A stretch of DNA of 64,000 bases from an uncultured Poribacteria bacterium (lineage in GTDB: Bacteria; Poribacteria; WGA-4E; WGA-3G): NCBI GenBank assembly GCA_951813565.1, contig OX638351.1:1184001-1248000 (forward strand). Direction: 5' to 3'. How positions within the stretch are numbered: position 1 is the first letter of the stretch; each line of letters opens with the position of its first letter. Positions 6,942 to 39,506 of the stretch are shown piece after piece. Both the position numbers and the translations under genes were made by a program. Under the pieces are notes generated by a model. The model worked only from the letters and a program-made list of their open reading frames with translations. It was not told the origin of the DNA and did no database searches.

Positions 6942-7134
6942 ATCAACGTATAAATTTATATGTATAATACCTTTAGCGAATACATTGTATGAGAAACTCA
7001 CTTTGACCTGTGAATCAACGCTACGATTCGAGATAGGGATTTCATTGTGTATTCCCTCGCGTATAGTAAATCATATTTGCACTCTGTTGTCAATAAAAAT
7101 GCGGTGTCTGTTTTCGCGTCTATAACAACGCCCT

Positions 7135-7351: not shown

Positions 7352-7380
7352 GGGGAACTGTTCTCGTAATCAAGTTTTTA

Positions 7381-7674
7381 CTAATCTTTAACCGAAATAA
7401 CTGTTTGAATTTTAAGCCATGAATCCCATTCATACATTTGGGCTCCGGCTAAAACAAGTTCTTTAATGTCTGTTTCAAGTTTATTGATAAGTTCTTCGGG
7501 GGCACGCCGATCATGCTTGATGTTTATTATGATACTTTTTCCATCTTTCGCTGCTAAACAATATGCATGGAATTTTTCATCGTTCACGCGTGGTAAAACA
7601 GAGTTTACCATAACAGCTAACCATTCCAAACGGGTTGGATTATATTCCTTTGCTCCTAATTCTTTCTTTGCCAT
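7381..7674 (-). CDS. Hypothetical protein (97 aa)
   Basis: ORF with GGAG-type RBS, directly downstream of 7687-8187. Confidence 0.6.
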   Translation of the reverse strand: MAKKELGAKEYNPTRLEWLAVMVNSVLPRVNDEKFHAYCLAAKDGKSIIINIKHDRRAPEELINKLETDIKELVLAGAQMYEWDSWLKIQTVISVKD

Positions 7675-7686
7675 CGTTTCTCTCCA

Positions 7687-8187: not shown

Positions 8188-8237
8188 AACACGCTCCTGC
8201 TACAAATTCCGCTCAATCTCAAAATCAGTTCCGCAAG

Positions 8238-9759: not shown

Positions 9760-12465
9760 TTAGCGTCCATGGCATTTTTTATATTTTTTTCCACTGCCGC
9801 ATGGACACGGTGCATTTCGTCCAACTTTTGGCATAGTTCCCATTGCCTGCTGTGAAGCAAATTCTGCTGAAGTTTGAGAGCTATCATTGGCAGCGCGGCG
9901 CGGCGGCGTTCGGCGGGAGCTGCTTGCCTTTCTGTTAGGCACTCGGCGGGGTGCTTCAGTATTAATACGCGATTTGAAGATAAACTCGCTTACTTCTTTC
10001 TCTACGTTTTGATACATGGATTCAAAGACACCGAGTGCCTCGCTTTTAAAAACAACAATTGGGTCTTTGCCGCCATAGCCTGCTCCGAACCTGATACCTT
10101 CTTCAATAAAATCAATATTATAAAGGTGGTCTTTCCAATGGTTGTCAATTCTATCTAACACAAGGAGTCGTTCAAGGAGACGCATGGTCTCCGATCCCAT
10201 TTCAGTTTCCCGTTGTTGATATGCAGTTTTAAGTTCTGCAATGATCTGTGCGTGCAGATCATCTGCGGATATTTCGGTTAGCGGGGTTTTCCAAGTGGGG
10301 TTAATCGGAAAAGTAGTTGTCAACCATTTTGTAAACTGTTCCAGGTCTTCTGTTTCACGCGGGCCTTTTTCAGGAATGATCATATCAATTTCATCATCGA
10401 CGACGTTCTCGATCATCTCCCACACAGTTTCTTTGGAGTCTTCATCTGAGAGAATAGTATCTCTTAATGTGTAAACGGTATCGCGTTGCGCTTCCATCAC
10501 ATCGTCAAATTTGAGTATATTTTTGCGGATATCAAAATTTATCTGTTCAACGCGTGTTTGTGACTTTTCTATTGCTTTTGAGACCCGCGGGTCTGCAAGT
10601 GGAATAGGTTCGTCCGTTGCAGCTCGGATCATAATCCCTTTTAGGCCTTCGATCAGACGTTCAGGTCCAAATTTTTTCATAAGGTCATCTTCAAGTGAGA
10701 GATAGAATGTTGATGAACCAGGGTCTCCTTGTCTTCCAGCGCGACCACGCAATTGGTTATCAATCCGGCGGGAATCGTGTCTTTCTGTTCCAACAATATG
10801 CAATCCGCCAGCGTTCAACACATGTTCTCGATTCTTTTCACAAATTTCTTCTGCTTCGGCGAGTGCCGTTTCTCGTTCCTCAGAATCCGGAGATAAAGCA
10901 TTTAAATTGATTTTCTTTTTTCGCAGCGTATCTTTTGCTAAACCTTCGGGATTACCACCAAGCAAGATATCAACACCTCTTCCTGCCATGTTGGTAGCAA
11001 TTGTTACGGCACCCGGCATTCCCGCTTGGGCGATGATGTCTGCCTCACGAGTATGCTCCTTAGCATTCAATACTTGGTGCTTAATATTCCGCTGTCTGGC
11101 TCTAAGCAGTTTACTTAATTTTTCCGAATTTTCGATGGAAATTGTTCCCACAAGGACAGGGCGACCTTTTTCGTGCTGCTCTGCAATGTCGTTCAGGACA
11201 GCATCATATTTTGCTTCTTCGGTTGCATAGATTTGGTCGGGATTATCAATCCGAATCATCGGTTCATTTGTAGGCACAACAACGACATCCAGTCCATAGA
11301 TATGCGCGAATTCGTTTGCTTCTGTTGCAGCTGTACCAGTCATCCCAGCGAGTTTCTCATACATCCGGAAATAGTTTTGGTATGTAATTTTTGCAAAGGT
11401 TTCGTTTTCTTGCGCGATTTTTACGCGTTCCTTTGCCTCAATGGCTTGGTGGAGCCCTTCACTCAACCGTCGCCCTATTTGTTTTCTGCCAGTGAATTCG
11501 TCAATAAGTATAACTTCGCCGTTTTCTACCAAATAGTGTATATCGCGATTGTAGAGGTGATGCGCGGTCAATGCTTGTTTGACATGGTGAACCAACATGA
11601 TGTTATTTTGTTCATACAAATTTTCTATTCCCAGACGACGTTGGACCTCTTCTATCCCATCATCTGTAAGCGTAACACTTCCGCGGGATTTGCCTTTCTT
11701 GTCAATTTCGTAATGTTCCTCGTTACGGAGCTGCGTAACAACACTATTAATTCTCCGGTAAAGTTCAGCGGGTTTGTCGGATGGGTCCGAAATAATGAGG
11801 GGTGTGCGTGCTTCATCAATGAGGATACTATCAACTTCGTCAAGGATGGCATAAGGATGCCCACGCTGTACTTTCATATCAATGGTAAGTGCTCGGTTAT
11901 CATTCAGATAGTCAAACCCAAACTCACTGTGGACTCCGTAGGTGATATCATTTTTATATGCGAGTTTTTTCTGTTCGTGTGGCATCTGGCTCAGTGTCAA
12001 TCCGACAGACAATCCGAGGAAATTGTATATTTTTCCCATCCATTCGGCATCCCGGCGTGCAAGATAATCATTGACTGTTGCGAGATGAACGCCATTTCCG
12101 GTGAGTGCGTTCAAATAGACAGCGAGGGTTGAAGTTAACGTTTTGCCTTCCCCCGTTCTCATTTCAGCGATTCCACCCTGATGGAGTGCTGCACCACCGA
12201 TTATTTGAACATCGTAGTGCCGCTGTTTTAATGTTCGCACTGCTGTTTCTCGAACAACGGCAAAAGCTTCTGGTAACAACTCTTCAAGAGATGCACCAGC
12301 ATCTAATTGCTTTCGGAACCACGGGGTTTTGGCTTGGAGTTGTGAGTCAGTGAGTCTTTTGATTTCCGACTCGCGTTGGTTGACAGCTTCAACAACTTCG
12401 CGAAAGCGTTTGACATCACGGTCTTCCTTTGTACCAAAGACTTTGTTCATTACTTTTTCAAACAT
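9760..12465 (-). CDS. secA: Preprotein translocase subunit SecA
   Basis: [32 protein letters not shown] and C-terminal [24 protein letters not shown] 12465 has a GAGG RBS. Confidence 0.97.
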
Positions 12466-14127: not shown

Positions 14128-17100
14128 GTTTCTATTCCACATTGGTGCGATTAAAAGTGGTTCTCTGGCTTCAGCATGACAGACAGAACAAGCCGTTTCT
14201 ATTCCACATTGGTGCGATTAAAAGTTGTGGGTCGCCGTTGGCAATGCTATTGGTGTACCCGTGTTTCTATTCCACATTGGTGCGATTAAAAGGATTGGCC
14301 CCCTGTGACTTGTTCGGCGCCCCTGATCATGTTTCTATTCCACATTGGTGCGATTAAAAGTTTTCTGTTTTATCCCAAGGTGCTGCCAGTTGTTGATCTG
14401 TTTCTATTCCACATTGGTGCGATTAAAAGGCACGTGGGGTTGCTACACCAGAAATCAATTATGTCGTTTCTATTCCACATTGGTGCGATTAAAAGGTTGA
14501 AACTGCTGGCATAGTCAGATTACGTAACAAGAGTTTCTATTCCACATTGGTGCGATTAAAAGAATGCCAATTATGTCCAGTTCGGACTCTGGGTGGCAAT
14601 GTTTCTATTCCACATTGGTGCGATTAAAAGGAGTGCAAGAGGACTAACCAGACAGAACACATATTACTTGTTTCTATTCCACATTGGTGCGATTAAAAGA
14701 AGCCTCCACAGGTTCGGGGGTTATAGGGTTTTCAACGTTTCTATTCCACATTGGTGCGATTAAAAGAAGCCTCCACAGGTTCGGGGGTTATAGGGTTTTC
14801 AACGTTTCTATTCCACATTGGTGCGATTAAAAGTTTGCAGCAACAAGTACCTTATAAGAGTTGAAAGCGACGTTTCTATTCCACATTGGTGCGATTAAAA
14901 GATAAGTGGATGGTTGATCCTACATCTTCGGATCCCGTGTTTCTATTCCACATTGGTGCGATTAAAAGTAAGAAATTCTCCAAACCTACGAGTCAGGAAA
15001 CCCCGTTTCTATTCCACATTGGTGCGATTAAAAGGTTTCAGCACCACTCACATTAAAATAACCAGTAAGGGGTTTCTATTCCACATTGGTGCGATTAAAA
15101 GCGCGTTTGCACAAGAAAGAATTGTTCAGGATACATTAGAGAGTTTCTATTCCACATTGGTGCGATTAAAAGGTAATTAGAAAAACCCGAGCTGATTATT
15201 CCCCGAACAGTTTCTATTCCACATTGGTGCGATTAAAAGGTCTTGATATTGTCAAGCAAGTTGCAAGATATTCTCAGTTTCTATTCCACATTGGTGCGAT
15301 TAAAAGTTTAAAAAACCTGCCTATAGGGTATCGTGAAAATAGTTTCTATTCCACATTGGTGCGATTAAAAGTAGGTGTATTACACACTTTCTACGTTGCT
15401 TGGGGGTTTCTATTCCACATTGGTGCGATTAAAAGTATGTTTAGTTCTTGTTTATAATACTTTTATTTCACACGTTTCTATTCCACATTGGTGCGATTAA
15501 AAGTGGTGAAGATGTAATTATGCCTATCTATACAGATGATGTTTCTATTCCACATTGGTGCGATTAAAAGATTGAACAAGATTTTACAAGGTATACAAAA
15601 GTTGCCAGCGTTTCTATTCCACATTGGTGCGATTAAAAGAAAAAGCCGACAGTCTGTTAACCGTAAACTCAACAACCGTTTCTATTCCACATTGGTGCGA
15701 TTAAAAGTTGGTCTTTACAGGACATAGAAACTGTCTTTGAGTATGTTTCTATTCCACATTGGTGCGATTAAAAGGTTTATGAGAGGGGGAACATGTCCCC
15801 TTCAGACGCAGTTTCTATTCCACATTGGTGCGATTAAAAGAATATGACCCCGAAAAATTCACTTATATTGTTAGTAGTTTCTATTCCACATTGGTGCGAT
15901 TAAAAGGAGTTCCATTCTGGTGCATCACTCCGAATGAATTATAGTTTCTATTCCACATTGGTGCGATTAAAAGACAAACCTCTGCCCTAACATCCTTATA
16001 CGAGATCATCTCGTTTCTATTCCACATTGGTGCGATTAAAAGTCTACGTCTTATCTTGAACAAGTTATCCGTGCTAACTATGTTTCTATTCCACATTGGT
16101 GCGATTAAAAGAACCGATTGTAATTCCGATAGCACATTGTCCAAGCGGTTTCTATTCCACATTGGTGCGATTAAAAGTTATCGCGGCTCTCCCAGTCCGT
16201 ATTGGAGAGACTCTGGCGTTTCTATTCCACATTGGTGCGATTAAAAGTTTAGGCTTGAAAATCCGTGAGCGTGTTTGTAAGAGAGTTTCTATTCCACATT
16301 GGTGCGATTAAAAGGATCGTCTGTGATCCTTGTAGTCAACCTGATATTTGTTTCTATTCCACATTGGTGCGATTAAAAGGTCCAGTTCGGACTCTGGGTG
16401 GCGGTTGGAAATGCCATGTTTCTATTCCACATTGGTGCGATTAAAAGCCGAAAAGGATGACTTTGAATTTGCTAATCAACGAAGAGTTTCTATTCCACAT
16501 TGGTGCGATTAAAAGTTACTAAAGCAAAACTTAGAGTTTATATCTCCCAAGTTTCTATTCCACATTGGTGCGATTAAAAGTATATTCGCATCACAAAAGC
16601 AAAATGGAGCGTTAAGTTTCTATTCCACATTGGTGCGATTAAAAGTGCGGAGGGCCTCAAACTTTTATTTTTGGGTGAATGCTGTTTCTATTCCACATTG
16701 GTGCGATTAAAAGTGAGCGTCCCTGGATTCAACAACAAGGAGATATAAAAAGTTTCTATTCCACATTGGTGCGATTAAAAGGAAAAGTACATGAAGGAGG
16801 TGAAGAGGAAATGGCTGTTTCTATTCCACATTGGTGCGATTAAAAGGTGATGATCTTCGTCGTCATCAGGTAGGGCATGTTGCGTTTCTATTCCACATTG
16901 GTGCGATTAAAAGTGAAAAGAAAGTCCTCGCTGGTGGTTATGACTATACGTTTCTATTCCACATTGGTGCGATTAAAAGTGTTTAATCTTCATTACTCCA
17001 ATGAAGACTATTATATGTTTCTATTCCACATTGGTGCGATTAAAAGTCTGGCCGCTCAGGGCGCTGTTCTGATGCATGTGATGTTTCTATTCCACATTGG

Positions 17101-17310
17101 TGCGATTAAAAGACCAAACATCAACTATGTCCGCTTCGGCTTGTATGGTTTCTATTCCACATTGGTGCGATTAAAAGTGTTTAATCTTCATTACTCCAAT
17201 GAAGACTATTATATGTTTCTATTCCACATTGGTGCGATTAAAAGGGCTTTCCCGGACAGACAGCCAATCGGTCGCCATCAGTTTCTATTCCACATTGGTG
17301 CGATTAAAAG
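14128..17310 (-). CRISPR. CRISPR array, 48 identical 30-bp repeats and 47 spacers (about 35-41 nt)
   Basis: Repeat on + GTTTCTATTCCACATTGGTGCGATTAAAAG; transcribed form CTTTTAATCGCACCAATGTGGAATAGAAAC ends in an ATAGAAAC handle; leader on the cas2 side; counted by hand. Confidence 0.98.
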
Positions 17311-17566
17311 GCTATCCAAAAACTACATAAACATTATAATAAACCCTTACAGTTCCTGTCAAGTTAAAATTTATTTTTGTCAGATTTATGGGTGGTTGCC
17401 GTCAACCTCTAATCGTGCAAATTCTCTGGGAGGTTGACGGCAGTAGACGCATCAAGGGTTTGTCGGGGATTTTGCACGATTTTCGGTGCAGTATTGAGCC
17501 GCAAAATGAGAAAGATTTCGGAGGTCGACAGCAGAACATCAACACAGATTTACCGATGACGCCTTA
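17311..17566 (-). promoter_or_regulatory. CRISPR leader with sigma70 promoter and 13-bp inverted repeat
   Basis: Minus-strand TTGACA (17357-17362), 18 nt, TATAAT (17333-17338); IR TGCCGTCAACCTC (17397-17409) / GAGGTTGACGGCA (17430-17442). Confidence 0.8.
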
Positions 17567-17830
17567 CTACAGCAGGTTTGTCGCAGGATTCTTGTCAACA
17601 CCCATCACCTCTTTGGTCATCCATTTCGCATCGCGCAGTTGATAGATAATAACTGAGTCTTTTTCAGGATCGGTGATTTCTGCTAAACCCGATTTGACAC
17701 GAGCGAACTGTGCTTTGGTCAATTGTCCTTCAAATACAGAGTTTTGAATCCAATTGAGATGTTGACGCAGATATTTACATACCTTTGCCACCCGTTTCAC
17801 TTCTATGTCGTAAACGAGGATGATATACAT
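17567..17830 (-). CDS. cas2: CRISPR-associated endoribonuclease Cas2
   Basis: YIILVYDI...WIQNSVFEG, 87 aa. Confidence 0.96.
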   Translation of the reverse strand: MYIILVYDIEVKRVAKVCKYLRQHLNWIQNSVFEGQLTKAQFARVKSGLAEITDPEKDSVIIYQLRDAKWMTKEVMGVDKNPATNLL

Positions 17831-19980: not shown

Positions 19981-21117
19981 TTACGGATTTGCATTTACAT
20001 TGTTCCTGTGTCCATACCTACGAAGTATGAGCCTGCCGTTATCCGTTGAACAACTGACGCGGATTCCGCGGGCAACACGAAAAGTATAAACGTTAGCATG
20101 CCCTTGTAAAGCTTTAAATCGTAATCCTCCTCCTGTGAGTGCTGTTGTATCTCCGTTGTTAGCCTTAAGTTTATAGGCAACATGAGCTAATGTTTCCTGA
20201 AGTTTAATGCGTTCTTCAACATTGTTTTGATTGCTGAAGTCATCTTTGAAACTTGGCAAGTATTCCAATCGTGGGAATGGTAGAAGTTCTCCTGTCAAAA
20301 TATCTGCTTTTGTCCGATTCCAAATCAGGTTTCCCCACGCGGACAACCATGCAACAGTTTTTCCGTTATTTGCTAGAGATTCAAGCAGTGTTTCTGGAAT
20401 ACCTTCAAGTTCTTCAATAGGATAATCTGCGTCAGCCGCCATCATTGCAAATTTTGTCCGATGCTGTTGGATTACGGATGTATCAATCTTAATTGGGAGA
20501 CGTGGAATTCTAATCAGATCAGAAGATCGTTCAAAGATATATACAGTTTCATCGGCATAGAATGTGCCGAAAGTCTGCATGTAACCTTGCAGGCTTTTGA
20601 AGCCACCAACAAGATTAAATATGACACGATAACCCGCATCAGGCCGCCACGGGACGTTATCCTCCAACCACTTAATGAGCTCCTTTATACCATCGGTGAA
20701 AGAATCTGTATCTTTCGTCGATAAACCTTTAGGTGTTACAATAGATACGCTACACCCTTTATCTTGCAGAAACTCAGAAATCAGTTTACCTGTTGTTTCT
20801 CCTTGTGCGGTGTCGGTGCAGATAAGATAGTGTTGATCTTTACTGTTTTCAGGTAACCGACCTTCGTAGATACCATAAACACCATTTAATTCTGCACTTG
20901 CCATTCGGTTTGTATTTACATCATTTTCCTGGAGTTTTTTATGTGCGCGTTCAGCGAGTTTTGTAATAACATCTTGAGCCTTAGCTTCTAATTCATCATT
21001 TTTAAGATTTGCTGATTCCACAAGTATTTTTGCCCAATCTCTTGCTTCGTCCGGATCTTTTCTATTGATGGAATTTGTGAGGATACTTGTTCCAACGGTT
21101 GATACGATAAAACGCAT
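19981..21117 (-). CDS. cami1: CARF (APE2256/SSO1393-type) + C-terminal RelE-like toxin; Cami1-like type III effector
   Basis: STVGTS N-terminus, SAELNG, TDTAQG and FNLVGGFK (CARF); C-terminus LEYLPSFKDD...YTFRVARGIRVSC...LILRRYGHRNNV (RelE-like). Confidence 0.75.
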   Translation of the reverse strand: MRFIVSTVGTSILTNSINRKDPDEARDWAKILVESANLKNDELEAKAQDVITKLAERAHKKLQENDVNTNRMASAELNGVYGIYEGRLPENSKDQHYLICTDTAQGETTGKLISEFLQDKGCSVSIVTPKGLSTKDTDSFTDGIKELIKWLEDNVPWRPDAGYRVIFNLVGGFKSLQGYMQTFGTFYADETVYIFERSSDLIRIPRLPIKIDTSVIQQHRTKFAMMAADADYPIEELEGIPETLLESLANNGKTVAWLSAWGNLIWNRTKADILTGELLPFPRLEYLPSFKDDFSNQNNVEERIKLQETLAHVAYKLKANNGDTTALTGGGLRFKALQGHANVYTFRVARGIRVSCSTDNGRLILRRYGHRNNVNANP

Positions 21118-21144
21118 TCTTAGCCTCCTTTCATGCTAAAAGAA

Positions 21145-22317
21145 TCAAGAGGCGTCAATTGGTGATATTTTGACCCAACCGAGTGGTGTGACAGGGTTAT
21201 CTCTACGGTATAAAATGCGGCGGGTTTTTGGGAATTCACGAGTATCATAGGGTTGTCGTTGATTAGAACGACTCCTACCTAACCGATACCGTTCTCGTAA
21301 CTCCATCACGTCTATAGGTGCATCTTCTCCTTGCGTAAACGATGCGGTAACAGTGTTAGAAAGGTATCCTGCGCCCCACCCGATTTGCAGCATAAACGCA
21401 TCGTCAGCCAGTCTATTGTTTAAACCCATCAGTTGTTCATATAGGTTAGCGATTTCTGGATTATTGTAGTCATCATAGAACTTTCGTTCCACTTCCATAA
21501 GTATTTGCGTCTCCTCGTTACAAACTTCAGCAATTTCTTGGAGTATATTTTTTTGTGTCTTATCAAAATTGAGTTGTTTTTTCTCCCTTTCTCTAAAAAG
21601 CAGGTCATCAATCTTGATGGAAAAACTCAAAGACTTCACACCCTGAATTACCTCTACAAAGTTTTTATATTCTGTGTTGTCCTCAACCTTCTGTTCAAGT
21701 TGATTGTTTTGATTGAGTGTAACCGTCCATGCAGTCTCGATTGCAAGTGCGTCCCACTCAAGCGGTTCAGTATCGCTTACTTGTAATGCGCGAAGCAGAT
21801 CATGGGTAGGGTCTTTCCCAAACGCCAGTTTTTCTATCTGTTGGGCAGGATTTTCTTGTCTACGTCTCGGTGGCGTGCCTTTTTCAATTTCTCTGTTCAG
21901 ATGTTCCGAACTGTCGTTATAGAGTTTTTCATTTTCAGCATTGTTTATTAGATCCGATAACAACGCAGTGCGGAGTGCACCTTTGATACTGCTACCGGGA
22001 ATATAGGGACGGTTGCCTACGGATTTGATAGCTTCTCGTATGTCAGTTGTTTCTGGGCTTTGGGCGCAAAGGATATTATAAGTGGAAAGGTCCGCTGCAT
22101 CCATGTTGTGCCGTGAGAAGTAATCGCTCCAACGGAAATCGCGCTGCGACATTTCGGAGGTCAATGCGTTTATATCAGTGCTTGGATGCGCTAATACTTT
22201 GTCCAGGTCAATATGATACCACCTGCTGTTAGCATAATAGCCATCAATATGATTCAACGTTTCGCCTGTGCCGATGTGGACTGGGGTGAGTGTTTCAAGT
22301 TTGTATTTTTGTTTCAT
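21145..22317 (-). CDS. csm5: Type III-A RAMP Csm5
   Basis: TLTPVHIGTG, PYIPGSSIKGALRTA, LQIGWGAG and PLGWVK motifs. Confidence 0.93.
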   Translation of the reverse strand: MKQKYKLETLTPVHIGTGETLNHIDGYYANSRWYHIDLDKVLAHPSTDINALTSEMSQRDFRWSDYFSRHNMDAADLSTYNILCAQSPETTDIREAIKSVGNRPYIPGSSIKGALRTALLSDLINNAENEKLYNDSSEHLNREIEKGTPPRRRQENPAQQIEKLAFGKDPTHDLLRALQVSDTEPLEWDALAIETAWTVTLNQNNQLEQKVEDNTEYKNFVEVIQGVKSLSFSIKIDDLLFREREKKQLNFDKTQKNILQEIAEVCNEETQILMEVERKFYDDYNNPEIANLYEQLMGLNNRLADDAFMLQIGWGAGYLSNTVTASFTQGEDAPIDVMELRERYRLGRSRSNQRQPYDTREFPKTRRILYRRDNPVTPLGWVKISPIDAS

Positions 22318-22337
22318 TATTGAGGTTTTCTCCTACA

Positions 22338-23393
22338 TTATCGGGAATCGGAGTTCCCTCCTACTTTGATGCCGACCTGCCACGCGTAGCCATAGCGATA
22401 GACGTGATGCGGGTATTCCTTCGGTGTTAAATCTACCAACCTGCCAACGAGTTTGTCAGATGAATTTAAAACTGAACCTTCTGCGAACATATTGACCTTT
22501 TTCCTCTTTTTGTGTGTGCCAGTTGCCCCCACCCATCCTGTTAATGGGTTTAGGTTGTAGGCGATATCACCTTTGAGGAGATGCTCAAGTTGCTCCGATG
22601 ATTTGGGGCATATCGGTGAAAGTGTGACAAATTGCGTGCTGTGTTCCGCTGTCGATATTTCAAGATCATGCGCTGGGCAAAACTCAAACTGCCCGTAACC
22701 TGCGTTGCGTTCACCACCGATTCCGTTGTCGCCAAGCACTCGGAGTAGCGTTTCTACTTTCTGTTTTGTTGCATCAGAGTCAAATTTCGCTGCGAACCAG
22801 AGTCCGCAGTTTGTATTGAATTGGACGGTTTGGACGTGCCATATTTCGGAGCCTGAATTTTGCGCACCGATGGTAACGCGCGGGCGTGTGGTAGTCTCCC
22901 AAATGATTGGCGTATTATCCATCACCTTATTTAGTTGATCTTTTTCATCAGCACTTATCCAAACATTTTCACCGTTGATCAGATTGTCTCTGTCAAAATC
23001 AGGCGATTGATCGGAGATAATGTTTTGAAAAATAGATTTGGAAATGAACCGGACCTTTTTGATTTTTTTCTTAGATTTGTCTGGGACATTTTCATTTCCA
23101 CGAAAAGTCAAAGGTTTCGGAAAGAGGTAGATGTTATCTGCATACGGAAACGCAGAGGTTAACATAAAAGGTAACGTCTCGCTATCTTCTTTGTATCGTT
23201 CAAGAGACTTTTTGAGACTGTCGGTGTCGTAAAAGGTTGACCACGTTTGGCAGATTGCAGAAAAGAGCGTATCTGCTGGGATGTAGGTCTCGGTTTTCTC
23301 TAAGCCGAGGCTGCCTGTTTGTGCTGCACCTGTGGCGCGCCCGAGGTGTAGTTGTGTTTTGAACCTTAAGCGATAGACGGTATAATCTTCCAT
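22338..23393 (-). CDS. csm4: Type III-A RAMP Csm4
   Basis: IPADTLFSA, LTSAFPY, GIGGERNAGYGQF, MFAEGS and HHVYRYG motifs. Confidence 0.93.
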   Translation of the reverse strand: MEDYTVYRLRFKTQLHLGRATGAAQTGSLGLEKTETYIPADTLFSAICQTWSTFYDTDSLKKSLERYKEDSETLPFMLTSAFPYADNIYLFPKPLTFRGNENVPDKSKKKIKKVRFISKSIFQNIISDQSPDFDRDNLINGENVWISADEKDQLNKVMDNTPIIWETTTRPRVTIGAQNSGSEIWHVQTVQFNTNCGLWFAAKFDSDATKQKVETLLRVLGDNGIGGERNAGYGQFEFCPAHDLEISTAEHSTQFVTLSPICPKSSEQLEHLLKGDIAYNLNPLTGWVGATGTHKKRKKVNMFAEGSVLNSSDKLVGRLVDLTPKEYPHHVYRYGYAWQVGIKVGGNSDSR

Positions 23394-23401
23394 AATCGCA
23401 C

Positions 23402-24232
23402 CTATTTCCCGTTAATTGCTTTCAAAATTGTAGTTTTATAGTCCAATTTGCGTAGGGTTGCAATATCGGTGTTTTCATCTCCGATAGGGGTAAGGGTAAC
23501 GTTTGGGTCTTCATAACATTCACGCGATTTGAAGGTCATGGTTAGGTTCTCAAATGCTATTTGCCCAGAACCGCGGGAACCGGAGCCGCCGAGGTAGTCA
23601 TCTTGAAGCAGTTCCATACCTTTTAGGACGGTGTCGAAAAGTTTGAGTTCGTCTTGAAGTTGATTGTCATGATCGCTGCCGTGCAGTGTATAGAGACTGT
23701 GGGCTACTTGAAATGGTCCGAATATTGCGCCTGCAGGGACCCGTTCCTGTTGACGTGGTGTAGCGGCAGAGGTAATTCGGTCAATTGCTACTTCTGTCTT
23801 AATTTCGGTGAAGTCGGTATCGGTGTCGACTCTGTCCAGTACCGCCAGTGATTCGTCGGTTAAAAAGGTGTCTCGGACGATCACACGTGTCGGCATTGTT
23901 TTCCCTCTTAATTGTTGTATTGGTGCAACACCGAAAACTTGACAAACTGGGCATATATTATATTCTGCTGGTGTTTTGCACTCGTGAACTTGGACATCTC
24001 TACCGACAGACTTATTCAAATCCTTCTCGAAGTGCCGGTCAAGTAAACCTCGCATCTTTCCACGTAAGGACGAACCGGGGATGTAGGGTTGTCGGTTGAA
24101 GGCGTTTCGTATGATTGGATTATCAATACCACCGATGTCTAATTCACCTGTGTTGCCACCGATGTGTAATCCTGTTAAGGCGTTGATTGCACCTTTTAGA
24201 AAAATTTTTCCGTGTAGTTGAATGCTTGGCAT
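23402..24232 (-). CDS. csm3: Type III-A backbone RNase Csm3 (Cas7)
   Basis: TGLHIGG, IGGIDNP (catalytic Asp position intact), PYIPGSSLRGKMR, KTEVAIDR and YLGGSGSRGSG; ATG 24232 with AAGGAGG RBS. Confidence 0.95.
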   Translation of the reverse strand: MPSIQLHGKIFLKGAINALTGLHIGGNTGELDIGGIDNPIIRNAFNRQPYIPGSSLRGKMRGLLDRHFEKDLNKSVGRDVQVHECKTPAEYNICPVCQVFGVAPIQQLRGKTMPTRVIVRDTFLTDESLAVLDRVDTDTDFTEIKTEVAIDRITSAATPRQQERVPAGAIFGPFQVAHSLYTLHGSDHDNQLQDELKLFDTVLKGMELLQDDYLGGSGSRGSGQIAFENLTMTFKSRECYEDPNVTLTPIGDENTDIATLRKLDYKTTILKAINGK

Positions 24233-24242
24233 GTGTTCCTCC

Positions 24243-27132
<2,890 letters not shown>

Positions 27133-27200: not shown

Positions 27201-27300
27201 TGCTCTATTCCAAATTGGTTCGATTAAAAATGTACAAGAAATACAAGTTCCTTTAAGAGGAACAACAAAAGTTTTTATTCCAAATTGGTTCGATTATAAA
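27201..27300 (-). CRISPR. Degenerate two-repeat mini-array with one 40-nt spacer (crRNA-like regulatory RNA)
   Basis: 27271-27300 matches the main repeat 25/30 and 27201-27230 matches 24/30; spacer 27231-27270; guide 5'-UUUUGUUGUUCCUCUUAAAGGAACUUGUAUUUCUUGUACA. Confidence 0.85.
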
Positions 27301-27360
27301 GTGTACATCCAACATTATACATTTTGTACACTATTAAGTTTGGAATGTCAAGTTAAAAGT
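27301..27360 (-). promoter_or_regulatory. Leader-like promoter region of the mini-array (possibly also of cas10)
   Basis: TGTCAAGTTAAAA (27346-27358, minus-strand TTGACA) identical to main leader 17357-17369 and at nearly the same distance from the repeat; AACATTATA also shared. Confidence 0.65.
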
Positions 27361-27386
27361 CAGGAAATTCGGAAATATAAAGGTAG

Positions 27387-27408
27387 GGCGAGGCAAAGGT
27401 GCCTCGCC
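27387..27408 (-). terminator. GC-rich hairpin (terminator or REP-like) after the 59-aa ORF
   Basis: GGCGAGGCA-AAGG-TGCCTCGCC perfect 9-bp stem, 11 nt past the stop codon. Confidence 0.55.
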
Positions 27409-27419
27409 AATTCAGTGGG

Positions 27420-27599
27420 TTAATTGTTTGGAAAACTTTTGATGTTTTTCTTACAGTTCTTTGTAATTCTTTTTATCTCATTTTTCTCATTGTACTTGCT
27501 GGTGTCTTTCGACTCATCTCGAAAAAACGAGAAGAAAAATCCGAAATGGATTTTTACCTTCCTGTTCGGTTGTAAGCGAAATTCTGAATAGAATTTCAT
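27420..27599 (-). CDS. Unannotated 59-aa basic small protein; candidate CRISPR-repressed toxin or regulator
   Basis: MKFYSEFRLQPNRKVKIHFGFFFSFFRDESKDTSKYNEKNEIKRITKNCKKNIKSFPNN; strong SD AAGAAAGGAGG; absent from the ORF track, whose shortest entries are 60 aa. Confidence 0.55.
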   Translation of the reverse strand: MKFYSEFRLQPNRKVKIHFGFFFSFFRDESKDTSKYNEKNEIKRITKNCKKNIKSFPNN

Positions 27600-27721
27600 G
27601 ATATCTGCCTCCTTTCTTCATAAAATTTAACATTTATCTCCTTTCTTGTTTGACATGAGTCCACAGTAGAATACTTTCCTTAAACTTGTGAAACATCTTG
27701 TCGTGATTTATTCTAATGATA

Positions 27722-27738
27722 TGCAAAATCTATGCCAA
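27722..27738 (-). promoter_or_regulatory. Sigma54 (-24/-12) promoter upstream of the small ORF(s)
   Basis: Minus strand TTGGCATAGATTTTGCA fits YTGGCACGRNNNTTGCW with exact spacing. Confidence 0.6.
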
Positions 27739-27855
27739 TAATTTCGGTAGAAATTATATGGTTATCTCCTTTTTGCTGTGCCAAATTGACATTTTTATCG
27801 CAACTTCATAAAACAACAAGGTCAATTCGGCACATTTGGAGCGTTTAACGTTATA

Positions 27856-30189
27856 CTATAAAACGTTCGGATTATATTCGTCTAATATCAGACCAAGTGT
27901 ATTATCGTAGCGAACGTTGATGAAATACTGATTTATACGTTCATTTTCGTTGATTTGCCCATCCTTATATAGTTTTGCAAATTGGCTGTAACTAATTTGT
28001 GCGATGTATGCCCTCGCTTCATAATACTTGCGAGCATCTGTGTCGGATAAAAATTCTTGTTCGTAGCACGTTGGCACAACCTCAACGCTTTTAAAGAGTT
28101 CGTTAAACTCTTTACGTCCTTTAGCATCTTCAATGAACGGGACGATGTCTTGTAGGTGCCGTTCAAACAGTTGTTTTGCTCTATTAAACTTATCATTTTC
28201 TTTTTCATCATACCCTTCACAATAAACATTTTCTATAAGGACTTGGATTTTTGACTCCTTGAGTGTGTCATTAACTACAGATGCGAAAGCGTTTATAGTG
28301 CGTTCAACTTTCTCTGTGGAATAGATGTATTTATCGCTTTTCCCACCCTCTTTGCATATATGGACATCACAGATTCCTTTCTTGCCTTTTCTGTTGATAC
28401 GACCAAAACGTTGGATGAGTGCATCTATCGGTGCAGGTTCAGTAAAGAGACAATCAAAATCAATGTCAAGTGATACCTCAACGGCTTGTGTGCCGACAAG
28501 GAGATCGGCGTTTTCAAGTTCTCCTTCTATCCTTTCCCGATCTTTAAGGATAAATCGGCTGTGAAGGAGTTTGGCATTATCGGCTCCATGCTGCAATTCC
28601 TGAAACACATCTTGTGCCTGCTTGACAGTATTACAGACAACCATAACGCTATCTCCTTGGTTCAGTTTATCCTTTATTTTCGGAATAGCATCGGGGATAT
28701 TTCCATCAAGCAGCTTGACACGGTGCCGTGTGAATTTGTCCCTATCTTCTGGTGCCATGTCAACTGGTATGAATTCCCCGATTGCCTTGATAATCATATC
28801 TGTAAGAAACTGGGGCATTGTAGCAGTCATAATGCAGAACTTTGCATTGTAATCTTCACGGAGTTTCTTTATCATTGTCAAAATAAGCGCGGTTGTGTGC
28901 GGATCATAAGCATGGATTTCGTCAAAGATGAAAAGTCCATGAGACATCTCTGCCATCTGCATTTCAAAACCGCGTATACCGAAAAATGCTTTGAGGAGTT
29001 GAAAGGGCGTTAGCACCTTGTAAGGACGACAAATTTTTTTCGTTAGATCTCTTTCGTCTTGAGCACGTTTTTGCCTAACTAATTTTTCGGCAGATTCATG
29101 ATCACGCCCCTGATCAATGAAAGCTTGATATATGGCTTGATATTTGGCAGCATTTTGAGGTGTATAGTCTTTATCAACGAGTGCTTGATACATGAAGTAG
29201 GTAGCCTTTCCATGCAACACACCTATTTTTTCGTCTGATACGAGTTTTTTCAATCTCTTATACATTGCGTTGATGCTTGCAGTATAGGGTAACACATAAA
29301 AGACACGGTTACCTTTTGTTTTGCATTGGTTTTTGTCTGACCAAAGCAGCGCAGCTTCCGTTTTACCTGAACCTGTCGGTGCTGATAGCATGAGCTGACC
29401 GTCGGTTTTCCCAGCATCCTCTTGAAAGGACTCCCATCCGTGAAATTGTCGTCCTCTTTGCTCAATGCTTTGTACAAGGGACGCTTCAAGTTTATCAAGG
29501 GCGGTTTGGATTTCGTTTTTGGCATTGACATTAGAAGCAAGATGATCGCAGGCAATCATGCATCCGCGCATCAGCATGCCGTAGGTGCAGTGTAAGGAGT
29601 TTAATTCACCGTCTTCAAAGTCGTTCAAATATGGGGCAAGAAATTCTCGGTAACCACTAATGAGTAGATCGGTTGAGGTAACGGGTGTCCATAAGCACGT
29701 TGTTGTAGGAAACCAACTATGAAACCAATGAGGGATCTGCTCCTGTATTTCCATCAAAGCATCCCAATTCGGTTCCAGTTCTGCAACATGCTTTTGCCAC
29801 TCTTGATAACCTTCTTCGTTTTCTGGAATGCATGGATACTTTTCCCACAGCGTCTCACTATCCTTATGGTGTGTTAAAATGGCAAGTGCAATTGCCTGTT
29901 TTGCCTCATCTGATATTTGAAGTGTTACCACAAATCCAGTGGAAAGGATTTCATGACGATAGTTCCACCGATCATCTCTATCGGTAAGTTGCTTTTGGAA
30001 ACCGGTTGCTGCTTTGCCGAAATCGTGAAGTGCGACAGCGTAAAAAAGATGTTCAAAGAAATTAGGTTCTCCTGCAACATCAGCTAAAAAAGGCATCCGT
30101 TCTCGTAGACTATTGTATACTTCAAGACAATTCTGTGTATGATCATGAAGTGATTCTTGTGGATCGCTTTTTGCTAATAGTGTGGACAT
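27856..30189 (-). CDS. cas3: Cas3 HD nuclease-helicase
   Basis: ALHDFGK, APTGSGKT, DEIH, MTAT, TQAVEVSLDID and QRFGRINR motifs. Confidence 0.96.
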   Translation of the reverse strand: MSTLLAKSDPQESLHDHTQNCLEVYNSLRERMPFLADVAGEPNFFEHLFYAVALHDFGKAATGFQKQLTDRDDRWNYRHEILSTGFVVTLQISDEAKQAIALAILTHHKDSETLWEKYPCIPENEEGYQEWQKHVAELEPNWDALMEIQEQIPHWFHSWFPTTTCLWTPVTSTDLLISGYREFLAPYLNDFEDGELNSLHCTYGMLMRGCMIACDHLASNVNAKNEIQTALDKLEASLVQSIEQRGRQFHGWESFQEDAGKTDGQLMLSAPTGSGKTEAALLWSDKNQCKTKGNRVFYVLPYTASINAMYKRLKKLVSDEKIGVLHGKATYFMYQALVDKDYTPQNAAKYQAIYQAFIDQGRDHESAEKLVRQKRAQDERDLTKKICRPYKVLTPFQLLKAFFGIRGFEMQMAEMSHGLFIFDEIHAYDPHTTALILTMIKKLREDYNAKFCIMTATMPQFLTDMIIKAIGEFIPVDMAPEDRDKFTRHRVKLLDGNIPDAIPKIKDKLNQGDSVMVVCNTVKQAQDVFQELQHGADNAKLLHSRFILKDRERIEGELENADLLVGTQAVEVSLDIDFDCLFTEPAPIDALIQRFGRINRKGKKGICDVHICKEGGKSDKYIYSTEKVERTINAFASVVNDTLKESKIQVLIENVYCEGYDEKENDKFNRAKQLFERHLQDIVPFIEDAKGRKEFNELFKSVEVVPTCYEQEFLSDTDARKYYEARAYIAQISYSQFAKLYKDGQINENERINQYFINVRYDNTLGLILDEYNPNVL

Positions 30190-30192
30190 GTC

Positions 30193-30828
30193 TTATTCTC
30201 CATGAATGCGTTGGTGCAAATAGACACCCCATTCCTTATCGGTATCGTGTAATACATCACCCTCATATTTTATTTCCTCTGTGATAAGACAATATGCACG
30301 TGTACCACACTGCCGACGCGGAATATCTGCTGTGAAATGCGTTGGTAATGCCTGCACCTGTCCGTGAAGTTGTTGGTCAGGAAACGGGAGTATTGTATCG
30401 CAATAAGTCGTTTCCGTTTTACGTTCTAATTCAACTTCCTCTATAGATTTCACCGTTGCTAAATCTGAGGAACGCCCCAACAGCAAGGGGTAATGTGGTC
30501 GTTCTAATGCATCCTTTAACCACATATCCGGGGTATAAAGATAGAGTTCTGGTTGCACAAGGAATTCGCGTCTGTTGACGTTTGATTTTGCATCTAACTT
30601 GCCTCCAAATTCATAGACGGTTTCTAAATCAACTGCTCTGCCTTTACTCTTAAAAACAAACCCTATTGCTGCATCATGCGGTGTAACCCAGTCACCTTTT
30701 GCAGCAGTCAAAAGCCCATAAAGTGCCGAAAGTGGTGGTAAGGGTAGTGTCGGCTGGAATCCGCTAATAAATAACGGATTCCGAAATGATGAAACCCATC
30801 CCGTAATGTGAACGCGTAGAACCTTCAT
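30193..30828 (-). CDS. cas5: Type I-B Cas5
   Basis: SSFRNP...TLPLPPLSALYGLL, LLLGRSSDLA. Confidence 0.92.
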   Translation of the reverse strand: MKVLRVHITGWVSSFRNPLFISGFQPTLPLPPLSALYGLLTAAKGDWVTPHDAAIGFVFKSKGRAVDLETVYEFGGKLDAKSNVNRREFLVQPELYLYTPDMWLKDALERPHYPLLLGRSSDLATVKSIEEVELERKTETTYCDTILPFPDQQLHGQVQALPTHFTADIPRRQCGTRAYCLITEEIKYEGDVLHDTDKEWGVYLHQRIHGE

Positions 30829-31856
30829 GGAATGTCTCCGATATGTGTTTCTAATTTTTGTGATAACATGGATATTACCTTATTTGGCGAATCGTAAACG
30901 ATTTCACATGGTAGGTTTGTGTTGTTTGCCAAACTCATTAGATCCTCATCTATTCCATCCATGAACCCGCTCCGTCTACCGATATAAATCGCATCACAAA
31001 ATCGGTCTGCGTAGTCGTCAATAACTTGGTTTAGTGCGTCTAAAGATAACTCTCCGACTTCATTTCGTTCTACCATTAAATTCATGAATGGGTGGTTTCC
31101 ACCGTCAAGGACTGTGAGAATAATCAGTTTAGGTGTAACATCGGTGAGGTGTGATGTCAATTTTGCCCCACCACTGAGTATAGGAAGTGCTTCAAGAGTT
31201 TGTTGACAACGTCTCACCCGAATCTCTTTTGGAAGCACCCACGGTGCCTTTTCGTCTTCCTGAGTGCCACCCGCATTTTGGATAGTCTCAACATAACTTG
31301 ATGAGATATTCTTATAGCCAGTCCTGTTAACATCAGAAAACGCACCCACTGCACTGAGATCTAATGAGAAAATACCTTGTAGGACACACGAATAAAATTG
31401 GTGTTCATACGGCACTGGATCACCTTCTTGCCGTGCCATCACACCGAAATCGTTTGTTGGAATTTGTGGTTCGATAGCAATAAGCGGTGAACACTTCAGT
31501 GGAGACAAGCGGGTTACCGTCAAGTTTACTCTTTTCTTACCTTGCATTTCGCTTTGAGCACGCATATAACCAAAGACATCGTCATCGTCATAAGTTACAG
31601 GGTCTGCAGCGGTAAATGCAATTTTTTTCTCTCTTTCTATAGGCGAATTTTTCCATTCATCAAATTCGTGTTTAAGGGTGGTGCGCCACCAGTTTCGCCA
31701 TGCTTGTCCGGAAACATAAGGATAGGTACTCCGTCCTTTTCTTAACGTTTTGACCTTTACTATGTTTTCTGTTCTTTCAGATGTGTCCTCACCTGCGTTG
31801 TTAAGTGCGGAATATGGTGCATCAATTAGGGTGAGTCCGATAAGGTGTTTAGACAT
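30825..31856 (-). CDS. cas7: Type I-B Cas7 (Cst2/DevR)
   Basis: SALNNAG, YPYVSGQAWR, DDDVFGYM and TRLSPL motifs. Confidence 0.92.
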   Translation of the reverse strand: MSKHLIGLTLIDAPYSALNNAGEDTSERTENIVKVKTLRKGRSTYPYVSGQAWRNWWRTTLKHEFDEWKNSPIEREKKIAFTAADPVTYDDDDVFGYMRAQSEMQGKKRVNLTVTRLSPLKCSPLIAIEPQIPTNDFGVMARQEGDPVPYEHQFYSCVLQGIFSLDLSAVGAFSDVNRTGYKNISSSYVETIQNAGGTQEDEKAPWVLPKEIRVRRCQQTLEALPILSGGAKLTSHLTDVTPKLIILTVLDGGNHPFMNLMVERNEVGELSLDALNQVIDDYADRFCDAIYIGRRSGFMDGIDEDLMSLANNTNLPCEIVYDSPNKVISMLSQKLETHIGDIP

Positions 31857-31858
31857 GA

Positions 31859-33250
31859 TTAGTCCTCCTCATTTGCTTCGGTTTCAGATGCATCGTCTGC
31901 ATCAGGTATATTATCTTCATCAAAATCAACAAAACCTTTATCCTGTAGCCAGTTGTGGAGTCGTTCATAAACCCGAAAAAGCAGTAAGTCGCGCGTCTCT
32001 CGCCACGGTGTTGCGCTAAAATCCTCGCTCTCTGGAAAGAGATATTCCACATAATCATCCAATGAAAAAAGCGGGTTTTGTGTGCCTTGTTTAATTCGTT
32101 CTCGGATAATGTATAGCAGGACAGTTCGGCATGCCTCATAACTTTTGGCACCTTCTAAGCGAGTAAGTCGTTTATTACTTCCAGATTCTTGGATACAATC
32201 TGCGATGAGATCCCCGACATGTTTTATTTTCTCAAGTCGTGTTTGTTCCATAGCTCTAACCTCCTTAAAGTAGAGAGATAACAATTCCCAATTCCCGCGC
32301 GGTTTTCTGTGTCGTCTATTTAAAAAGGATCCAAGAATTGAGATGTCTTGCAATAGATTTTCATATACTCGGTTTGGTCTGTTTTTGTAATCTTCCTCAG
32401 ATTTAACTTTATCCCAATTGACATAGTAACCACTTCGGACAATTTCCTGCCATACTTTATTAAACTTGCCCATATAAACAATACGTAAAAATTTAAATAC
32501 AGGTGCGGGCATGTAGAATATCTCAAGTTCAGGTTTGTCGTTGTAATTTCTGAAACAGTAAACCTGCATCGGTATATTCTCATCAGAGCGCATTTCCTGA
32601 TATTGTGTCATTTCCCGCGCCATATAGAACAGTCCATTGCGTGGATTGGCATAACCAGGGTTAAAACACCCCGTTATATCCTGTTGAAGGTGTTGCTTGC
32701 GAATATCCTCGATACATACCCTCGCCCAACTTTTCAGTGCCTTCCACGAATTCGAGTGGAGTGTAAGAAACTGGCCTCCAGTCGCCATGAATACTAATGG
32801 GGATAATTGAATAGCAAAAGCACAAGCCGAACAATAACCTGCTCCCTCAGTGAAGGCAGGAAAAAAATTGCGTAATAGGCCAGAGCCTGTTAAAGGTATG
32901 TCTTTTTTCAAAAGAAAATTGTTGGCATCACGTCTGCCGCATCCCATACAATCTCCAGTTTCGTTCAATTCGCACATCGTGTCTAAATAGTGTGTGCATT
33001 CTTCCTTGAGTAGTGCAACTCTATCACGCTTATTGTGAGAAGGATTAGTCAATACACTATTTGGAAAAATGCTGTGTAAATTTCCCCATCCAATCTTTGT
33101 TTGCATCATTGGCGCGACATCATTAACAACTTGCTTAAGGTCCGCTTTAGTAATCTGATCGGGTTGTACGGTGCGCCCCAACCATTCACAGATACCACAA
33201 ACACCTGCATCAACAAATGGATTTCCCATTAACTTTTCATAAATTGGCAT
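31859..33250 (-). CDS. cas8: Type I-B large subunit Cas8 (Cst1/Cas8a1-like, CxxC-CxxC)
   Basis: GNPFVDAG, IFPNS, CMGC and CSAC motifs; located between cas6 and cas7. Confidence 0.85.
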   Translation of the reverse strand: MPIYEKLMGNPFVDAGVCGICEWLGRTVQPDQITKADLKQVVNDVAPMMQTKIGWGNLHSIFPNSVLTNPSHNKRDRVALLKEECTHYLDTMCELNETGDCMGCGRRDANNFLLKKDIPLTGSGLLRNFFPAFTEGAGYCSACAFAIQLSPLVFMATGGQFLTLHSNSWKALKSWARVCIEDIRKQHLQQDITGCFNPGYANPRNGLFYMAREMTQYQEMRSDENIPMQVYCFRNYNDKPELEIFYMPAPVFKFLRIVYMGKFNKVWQEIVRSGYYVNWDKVKSEEDYKNRPNRVYENLLQDISILGSFLNRRHRKPRGNWELLSLYFKEVRAMEQTRLEKIKHVGDLIADCIQESGSNKRLTRLEGAKSYEACRTVLLYIIRERIKQGTQNPLFSLDDYVEYLFPESEDFSATPWRETRDLLLFRVYERLHNWLQDKGFVDFDEDNIPDADDASETEANEED

Positions 33251-33287
33251 TTCAAAAACCTCCTTTCAAAAATGTTATGTAAAGTTA

Positions 33288-33317
33288 ATCATAACGTAAG
33301 TAAATAACAATTGTCAA
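33288..33317 (-). promoter_or_regulatory. Internal sigma70 promoter in front of cas8
   Basis: Minus-strand TTGACA (33312-33317), 18 nt, TATGAT (33288-33293). Confidence 0.55.
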
Positions 33318-33329
33318 ATTAAAATAAAT

Positions 33330-34082
33330 CTAAACCTCTACCATCCCGAACCCTGCACTATTCTTATCGCCAAACCCGCATTCATAGCCTGTCTGTATCA
33401 ATGCGGGGCTGCCGGACACACGAAACGGACACAAAATCCCGCGTATCTTGATACCCTTGAAATCAACAAGCCGAGTGACGCGCCTCTGCTTCCTACGGAT
33501 ATAGCGTTCATCAAAACATAAGGACAATGTATCGTCTTGCGGGGTGCGTGCATGTATCGCCTCATGTTTGCGGATAAGGTTTTGACGGATGAGATCGGAG
33601 AGTTCAGGATCGTCTGGTAGGCAGTAGTGCATGCGGCGTTTACCATCGTTTTCACGCACAGCGGACATCACAATCGGAGAGAGGCATCGGAACTCCATCT
33701 CAGAGCGAAAACGCGGGAGACGCGGGATCGTCACATCCTTGATTTTGAGTTGGTGCGATCCGATGGATAATCTGCCTTCGGTTAGGAGTGTATCGGCAAA
33801 ATGGGATAAGAATTGTTCCATTGGGGAAGATACGAACCACGTCAAAGTAGACCGAAAATGTATCTGTTCGCCTAAGATACGTCTGCGTTCTGCCATCAGT
33901 TGAGAGAAGGTGAAAAGCTTGAACCGTTTTTCAGCGGCGTGATAACCTTCATCATGCAGAAAGCCAGCGTATTCAGGATTAGATTCTGCAAGGAATCGGT
34001 AAATCACTCCGACAAGGAGGTGGTTGTAGTTAATGGGTAGGGTAATGCCGTTGCCAACATCGGTAAGGATTTGTATTCGCAT
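33330..34082 (-). CDS. cas6: crRNA-processing endoribonuclease Cas6
   Basis: LPINYNH, FLHDEG, FKLFTFS and C-terminal G-loop GFGDKNSAGFGMV. Confidence 0.95.
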   Translation of the reverse strand: MRIQILTDVGNGITLPINYNHLLVGVIYRFLAESNPEYAGFLHDEGYHAAEKRFKLFTFSQLMAERRRILGEQIHFRSTLTWFVSSPMEQFLSHFADTLLTEGRLSIGSHQLKIKDVTIPRLPRFRSEMEFRCLSPIVMSAVRENDGKRRMHYCLPDDPELSDLIRQNLIRKHEAIHARTPQDDTLSLCFDERYIRRKQRRVTRLVDFKGIKIRGILCPFRVSGSPALIQTGYECGFGDKNSAGFGMVEV

Positions 34083-39309: not shown

Positions 39310-39450
39310 TGTGAATATAAGAGGCGCAATGAATTGCGCGACGACAAACATATCAAGTCTATAGAGTGATAAAAGTAATTGTGAATATAAGAGGCGCAAT
39401 GAATTGCGCGACGACAAACATATCAAGCCTATAGAGAGTGAAAAAGTAAT
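39310..39450. repeat. 70-bp tandem duplication containing the GAGGCGCAATGAATTGCGCGAC REP
   Basis: Units start at 39310 and 39380. Confidence 0.8.
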
Positions 39451-39506
39451 TTAGATTTTCTATAACCCATTAACTTGTAGACACTAAGCCTTTGAATTTA
39501 AGACTT

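Follow-up and report, generated by a model that had tools for sequence, protein, structure and literature searches.

A CRISPR mini-array (from clustered regularly interspaced short palindromic repeat), located between cas3 and cas10 in a sponge-associated Poribacteria bacterium, carries a guide that is complementary to the mRNA of a small open reading frame (ORF) next to it. The locus lies in a 64,000-nucleotide stretch of contig OX638351.1 (assembly GCA_951813565.1, positions 1,184,001 to 1,248,000), which we call the window; the 5.43-Mb source genome is G000 in our comparison. Judged from the related sequences, the guide-mRNA pair is real, conserved, specific and tied to type III CRISPR effectors. 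Our preferred explanation, to which we assign a probability of roughly 0.55, is that a CRISPR RNA (crRNA)-like RNA loaded into the Csm complex silences the mRNA of a harmful small ORF, which would make this locus a type III counterpart of the CreTA and CrePA modules.

The mini-array and its match to the neighboring ORF

The mini-array and the small ORF share the 723-nt gap between cas3 and cas10 and, like all CRISPR genes of the window, sit on the minus strand. Occupying 27201-27300 (-), 69 nt upstream of cas10/csm1, the mini-array has the form repeat-spacer-repeat. Its upstream pseudo-repeat, psiR1 (27271..27300), is identical to the main-array repeat at 25 of 30 positions when read on the minus strand and is kept in seven species; the 40-nt pseudo-spacer, or guide, follows at 27231..27270, and the downstream pseudo-repeat, psiR2 (27201..27230), has a degenerate 3' end. 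A leader-type promoter of its own was read by eye at 27323..27358 (-), with a -35 TTGACA at 27351-27346, a 17-nt spacer and a -10 hexamer matching at four of six positions, though a consensus promoter scan of the window did not list it, and no Rfam family matched in the window. The short motif before this promoter is the same as in the leader of the main array, where a minus-strand -35/-10 promoter beside cas2 immediately precedes the first repeat. Because the shared leader motif and promoter fix the orientation, the guide has minus-strand sense and is complementary to the mRNA of the minus-strand ORF, which settles the proposal of the initial annotation that it is antisense to that message.

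The ORF has 59 codons (27420..27599, minus strand) and a GGAGG Shine-Dalgarno sequence (27612-27608) 8 nt before its ATG. In guide sense, the target site spans 27432..27473 (+) and lies at the 3' coding end, a few codons ahead of the stop; the RNA complementary to it, from the minus strand, is the ORF mRNA at about codons 42-56. Recomputing the ungapped alignment between the reverse complement of 27231-27270 and + strand 27437-27473 gave the 27 matches in 37 positions reported originally, or 27 of 40 when carried out to 27476. The mismatches fall at positions 6, 11, 12, 18, 21-24, 30 and 36, also as first described, so that each of the six every-sixth positions carries a mismatch (with 10 mismatches in 36, hypergeometric P = 0.00011). 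What had escaped notice is that the match continues beyond the guide: the last 5 nt of psiR1 equal + 27432-27436, and the site thus consists of a 5-nt anti-tag and the protospacer 27437-27473. The last 8 nt of psiR1 would form the crRNA 5' tag, an 8-nt length that we deduce from the repeat end.

The shuffle test suggested along with the original alignment has now been run. Composition-preserving shuffles of the guide reached at least 27 matches anywhere in the window in 36 of 2,000 trials, and within the local intergenic stretch 27301-27855 in 14 of 20,000; the second-best 40-mer match in the real window is 24. When the 30 guide positions that are not multiples of six were compared with both strands of the whole 5.43-Mb genome, the target site was the single best, at 26/30, followed by one site per strand at 22/30.

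Within the guide itself, positions 8-13 can pair with 19-24 as an internal 6-bp hairpin, after which comes a T-rich run. This combination, at 27263-27247 (-), appeared terminator-like in a scan, and might serve to end the small RNA or to reduce read-through into cas10. G000, G102, G125, G003 and G013 have the hairpin in perfect form (5 bp in the last), G001 and G023 in a weakened one. The weakly paired guide positions 21-24 fall within its 3' arm.

Conservation and pairing in seven species

Related genomes were searched with the DNA of the gap, the N-terminus of Cas10 and an ORF profile. Of 159 genomes of the order, 47 have this type of cas10, and 30 of those loci plus G023 were compared. A two-repeat mini-array lies at most 200 nt from cas10 in six loci (G000, G001, G003, G023, G102 and G125), and a seventh mini-array, with no cas10 after it, was found in G013; the carriers are seven species in two genera. 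All seven have a Shine-Dalgarno-led ORF upstream on the same strand, and in each the guide matches the 3' end of that ORF in the antisense-to-mRNA sense. Counted with the tag, the matches are 32/48, 32/48, 34/48, 35/48, 28/46, 39/47 and 35/46, against only 22-25 of 43-48 reached locally by ordinary array spacers in the same scan. The leader-type promoter stands upstream of the mini-array in six of the seven species and downstream of it in G125. In G001, two insertion sequence (IS) fragments put 811 nt between ORF and mini-array, and the pairing is still 35/48. The fragments around that module (G001 locus, 10180-12315) belong to ISAs1- and IS630-family transposases, the ISAs1 fragment being the one between ORF and mini-array.

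ORF and mini-array occur in the same genomes. Over 176 genomes of the phylum, the ORF profile matched strongly in six and found a 34-codon form in G023, exactly the seven genomes with the mini-array; weaker matches were G083, which has three stops, and G161, G005, G160, G084, G010 and a second site in G003 (E 0.002-0.009). No genome with the ORF and without the guide was found among the 176, and both G009 and G079 retain the last pseudo-repeat only, with no ORF. From this co-occurrence and the joint loss in G009 and G079, ORF and guide appear to be gained and lost together. Scanning DNA for the tag plus seed returned 20 loci in the genome collection, of which six were true, all in species already among the seven; 29 loci in metagenomes, of which one was true and identical to the window; and none in viral contigs.

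The mismatches have a period of six. Pooled over the seven loci, the every-sixth guide positions match in 9 of 39 cells (23%), while the other five registers match in 29/39 to 38/40 (74-95%). By our own arithmetic the every-sixth positions are second codon positions, and the same codon position is occupied by positions 3, 9, 15 and so on, where 37 of 40 cells match. Codon wobble, with its period of three, therefore cannot explain the relaxation. The register begins exactly at the junction of tag and guide; since the spacer length varies from 38 to 40, a register counted from the other end would drift. The pooled pattern of the seven species agrees with the expectation, raised in the initial annotation, that guide bases flipped out by the Cas7/Csm3 backbone should be free to change.

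Tag positions -5 to -2 match the target in all 28 cells, and positions -5 and -1 covary between two guide types. The search for guide-target covariation in orthologous loci, also proposed at the outset, turned up compensatory changes. For this alignment we used six loci, omitting G001 for its insertion. Pairing amounts to 87.7% over the 30 pairs at positions other than multiples of six, with changes on both sides in six of these, and to 93.3% over the five tag pairs, with such double changes in two. Covariation scored 0.189, which none of 500 shuffles reached (shuffles, 0.105), and sliding the partner by 1-3 columns lowers pairing from 80% to 43-51%. Independent covariation events are few, because most of the changes separate the two guide types.

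Of the possible frames, that of the ORF is the only one open throughout the seven species. Conservation of this frame over 34-60 codons, with a ratio of nonsynonymous to synonymous change (pN/pS) below 1, points to a protein. In 20 of 21 species pairs, which are not independent of one another, synonymous sites have diverged less in the target part of the ORF than in its N-terminal part, as a constraint on the RNA sequence itself would predict. The predicted product is rich in aromatic and hydrophobic residues in its N-terminal half and in Lys and Asn in its C-terminal half. It had no Pfam or NCBIfam match; a search of 5.8 billion proteins yielded eight members of its family, none of them named or carrying a Pfam domain, five of which (P0003-P0007) come from metagenomes. 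An ESM Atlas search gave a best score of 0.78 and no lead, and the AlphaFold2 model (mean predicted local distance difference test score, 55.7) was too low in confidence for use. Directly after the stop codon is a GC-rich hairpin (27385..27408, minus strand), a member of family D12, which resembles repetitive extragenic palindromic (REP) elements and has copies at 12750, 19802, 27382 and 41221; read by eye, a strong hairpin stands at the same place in each of the six relatives. Around the ORF start in this genome only, at 27597-27653 (-), a 37-codon ORF begins at an upstream ATG in another frame, has a GGAG box of its own and runs over the start of the 59-codon ORF; it is not conserved in G125.

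Upstream of the ORF by 122 nt is a sigma-54-type -24/-12 element (27722..27737, minus strand), one of two matches in the window where 0.16 would be expected. Exactly one copy is present at the module locus in all seven species and in G009, and none in 82 other loci examined. Across the seven species it stands 45-122 nt upstream of the ORF by our own arithmetic; in G009, where the module is lost, it stands directly before cas10. Further upstream, a 20-nt inverted repeat (27777-27796 / 27815-27834) is a candidate activator site, and similar palindromic halves are visible by eye in the relatives. The genome encodes rpoN. An RtcR-type CARF activator, as a sigma-54 partner, was not found in this genome. 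A promoter of this kind, dependent on an activator, fits an inducible suicide or signaling gene better than a constitutively made toxin, to judge from its sequence.

Effector, mechanism and competing explanations

A type III effector is present in every carrier genome, a type I effector not in all of them. G023 and G125, both single-contig genomes, have Csm3 and the module with no match to I-B Cas7 and no cas3_core match over the cut-off; G001 likewise has no I-B Cas7 match. In G023 the locus lies between housekeeping genes in the order cas6, ORF, mini-array, csm1-5, CARF gene, cas4 and cas1, which places cas6 directly upstream of the module. The module of G013, which has no csm genes beside it, might be taken for a counter-example; we dismissed it as such, as a complete cmr locus (cmr1-6) and a Cas6-like gene are encoded on another contig. 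In the window, cas10/csm1 (24850..27132, minus strand; TIGR02578, 558.7 bits) has both HD and GGDD motifs, and domain searches placed csm2, csm3, csm4, csm5 and a CARF-family gene at 19981..24893 (-). Csm3, aligned to solved Csm3 chains, retains the Asp of the GGIDNP loop, which we take to be the catalytic residue. Cas6 and csm1-5, a guide antisense to the transcript, 5+1 periodicity and tag:anti-tag pairing, all features of RNA targeting by type III-A systems, are thus found together at this locus.

These features suggest the following course of events. The mini-array's own leader-type promoter would drive its transcription, and Cas6 would cut the product into a crRNA-like RNA (8-nt tag, guide of about 35 nt) that enters the type III-A Csm complex, whose genes follow immediately downstream. 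Loaded in this way, the complex would pair with the 3' coding end of the ORF mRNA in 5-nt segments, the sixth bases remaining unread. As described in the accessible parts of two reports (PMC9297841, PMC11288051), pairing of the tag with the target flank allows Csm3 cleavage and blocks cyclic oligoadenylate (cOA) synthesis and DNase activity. The mRNA could pair with tag positions -5 to -2, so that Cas10, with its HD DNase and its cOA synthase, would stay off; protection from self-activation would be needed, since Cas10 has its HD and GGDD motifs and a CARF gene is present. With only Csm3 cutting, the message would be destroyed or left without a stop codon, and autoimmunity avoided. The ORF most likely encodes a harmful small protein, whose production would signal that the type III effector is lost or inhibited, and the pair could serve as an addiction module or an anti-anti-CRISPR module.

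Several observations weigh against this explanation. No search (Pfam, NCBIfam, 5.8 billion proteins or ESM Atlas) matched the ORF to a known toxin family, and purifying selection on it is moderate, with a pN/pS of the N-terminal part of 0.34-0.95 (0.43 for the closest pair). The G023 ORF is internally deleted to 34 codons, yet its pairing is kept. In G013, 2 nt are missing from the loop of the guide, so that the register is lost past position 22, and there is no adjacent csm. Guide positions 21-24 pair poorly at every one of the seven loci, which the mechanism does not account for. Since every carrier is from a single bacterial family, the seven loci represent few independent events. With its sigma-54-type promoter, the ORF would need an activator, unlike the constitutively transcribed creT. 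The post-transcriptional silencing by Csm that the initial annotation proposed gains from the type III link, the conserved guide-mRNA pairing, the period of six and the anti-tag, whereas the toxin and the addiction that it suggested are hypothetical, and the promoter argues against a simple constitutive toxin of the CreTA type. A guard module is advanced tentatively, at somewhat less than even odds: a sigma-54-induced toxin would be held off at the RNA level by Csm (or Cmr), with the anti-tag keeping Cas10 silent, until effector loss, viral inhibition or saturation during infection released it.

The same guide, target and type III machinery could also act on an ORF that is not a toxin. The guide might tune a sigma-54-induced small protein, such as a regulator or accessory of the csm/CARF pathway, or trim a sigma-54 transcript reading into the csm operon, in a CreR-like feedback. 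Type I-D mini-arrays regulate non-toxin cargo genes, according to the accessible text of Shmakov et al., and the conserved sigma-54-type promoter and inverted repeat before the ORF, the position of that element directly before cas10 in G009, the weak constraint on the protein and the retained pairing of the shortened G023 ORF would all suit such a role. However, ORF and guide are always gained and lost together, the target is in the coding 3' end and not near the cas10 start, and the strong hairpin parts the ORF from the mini-array or cas10 in all seven loci, so that the ORF looks like its own transcription unit. We consider this explanation rather unlikely, if worth keeping in mind.

Complementarity might instead work with no Cas protein at all, through a plain antisense RNA in the manner of type I toxin-antitoxin systems or a long-range stem in a read-through transcript that controls termination or translation. 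ORF and mini-array are on the same strand, no promoter is visible between them in G125, and, should both lie on one read-through transcript, the minimum-energy fold of 27485-27195 (-) pairs target with guide at -61.2 kcal/mol (z -4.33), which counts against silencing by Csm. A naked duplex, however, gives no reason for a relaxation at every sixth position counted from the tag junction, nor for retaining two CRISPR repeats and an array leader motif, and the pairing has outlasted the 811-nt insertion in G001; we regard this as improbable. Canonical CreTA or CreR action, in which type I-B Cascade with the guide binds DNA and blocks transcription, has in its favor the I-B operon next door in this genome and in G102, and the period itself, since in Cascade, too, every sixth base stays unpaired. 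However, the bases that stand where a protospacer adjacent motif (PAM) of three would be are the repeat's own 3' end in four of seven loci, including G000, and differ from it only at -1 in the other three, and the repeat's own end should not serve as a PAM for Cascade. With the site at the coding 3' end instead of a promoter, and with carriers whose I-B Cas7 and cas3 cores went unmatched as described above, the chance of this is small enough that we reject it. That the similarity continues into the repeat end is what a decayed inverted duplicate of the repeat-spacer unit, with no present function, would leave behind. Such a relic is very unlikely given conservation in seven species with changes on both sides, the period-6 pattern, the lower synonymous change in the target and the strict co-occurrence of ORF and mini-array.

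Surroundings and comparison with known systems

The gap with the module is bounded upstream by a type I-B operon, cas6-cas8b1-cas7-cas5-cas3 (27856-34082, minus strand; cas6 to cas5 at 34082-30193, cas3 at 30189-27856), whose first gene, cas6 (33330..34082), encodes the probable processing enzyme. Downstream of the CARF-family gene follow cas4, cas1, cas2, a leader and the main array of 48 repeats (14128..17315, minus strand), the leader and promoter lying at about 17316-17400 and adjoining cas2 (17567-17830). The main array contains spacer duplications, with identical adjacent units at 14670/14737 (region 14670-14833) and a doubled repeat-spacer-repeat unit at 16950/17148 (region 16950-17244). 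The csm2 gene (24243-24893, minus strand) encodes an N-terminal cold-shock fusion (Pfam CSD at residues 35-96, Csm2 at residues 116-215); Csm2 is only 164-165 amino acids long in G023 and G003, so the fusion is not universal.

Some further repeats were seen. A lone CRISPR repeat lies 3 Mb from the arrays (G000:C1:4216798-4216828, plus strand), with a hairpin before it, a GGAGG box and a 31-codon ORF directly after it, and an IS4-like transposase gene near by. Short palindromic REP-like families occur between genes at 39312-39466, 41078, 42352, 52755 and 59655, and also at 12623, 18007, 18076, 19196 and 52596, and a 33-nt unit is present in about five to six tandem copies at 7760-7957. The G013 module (locus 435-9128) has DISARM/BREX-like genes, for an SNF2 helicase and a PglX-like methylase, on one side and a RelE/ParE toxin gene on the other, in what looks like a defense island.

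If the proposed silencing is true, RNA-targeting CRISPR effectors also control host genes, and the tag/anti-tag rule has a natural regulatory use beyond the self-protection of arrays. The module would hint at how type III systems guard against loss or anti-CRISPRs, and would supply a design for quiet RNA knock-down already made and tested by evolution. More such modules could be sought by their signature: a mini-array beside cas10, an antisense match with mismatches at every sixth position and a matching tag flank.

Type I toxin-antitoxin systems combine a small ORF that has a long 5' untranslated region and a terminal hairpin with a neighboring small RNA complementary to the mRNA, a layout that recurs here; their toxin is a small hydrophobic membrane peptide. 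The antisense RNA in the present case is flanked by repeats, crRNA-like and of Cas7-type periodicity, however, and the ORF product is not an obvious single-helix membrane peptide. Closer in kind are the CRISPR-linked regulatory guides CreA, CreR, tracr-L and scaRNA, which in the accessible literature belong to types I, II or V, with CreA and CreR binding promoter DNA. The initial annotation knew of no natural type III version, and a literature search agrees, subscription journals and closed supplements being outside its reach. The available text of a December 2025 review (PMC12737573) lists CreTA, CreR and CrePA, with CreR in type I and V-A, and never mentions Csm; in the portions available of two preprints on crRNA-like RNAs there is no mention of type III, Cas10 or Csm. 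Type III mini-arrays were noted by Shmakov et al. 2023, where, as far as the accessible text goes, they were without conserved positions or targets and were judged to be degraded, non-functional repeats.

With CreTA, known from type I-B haloarchaea and from type I-F Acinetobacter and Pseudomonas, the module shares a degenerate mini-CRISPR in a cas locus and a putative crRNA-like RNA that is partly complementary to a co-inherited neighboring small gene, going by the accessible parts of PMC9458426 and PMC12737573. It differs in that CreA guides Cascade to the PAM-flanked promoter DNA of creT, while the match here is to the 3' coding end of an mRNA in RNA-complementary orientation, with an anti-tag standing where the PAM would be and a type III effector as the likely partner; moreover, CreT is a small toxic RNA, non-coding or with a minimal ORF, that ties up a rare tRNA or the like, whereas the target here is a conserved reading frame of 34-60 codons. 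In CreTA, losing either the Cas effector or the guide is toxic. CrePA is alike in that a protein-coding gene is repressed by a crRNA-like RNA, its release upon effector inhibition having been proposed to act against anti-CRISPRs (10.1101/2024.01.05.574328, in the part accessible). CrePA represses transcription by binding DNA, however, and no type III partner is named for it in the available text of that preprint and of PMC12737573; its toxin family is unrelated to our ORF as far as can be seen. The CreR and other cas-regulating mini-arrays (I-B, I-E, I-F and V-A), type II tracr-L and scaRNA likewise use ectopic repeats to regulate through partial complementarity, but their targets, so far as the accessible descriptions state, are cas promoters or DNA, whereas the sole good target in this genome is the ORF 3' end.

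The nearest parallel to the proposed mechanism is engineered. In type III-A knock-down as designed by Woodside et al. 2022 (PMC9297841, accessible parts), the target is chosen for a 3' flank able to pair with the tag of the crRNA, so that Csm3 cleaves the mRNA in steps of 6 nt and cOA production stays off. That system is man-made, works in Escherichia coli and uses fully matched guides (PMC9297841, the same parts), whereas the Poribacteria pair is natural and conserved, and its fourth segment is mismatched.

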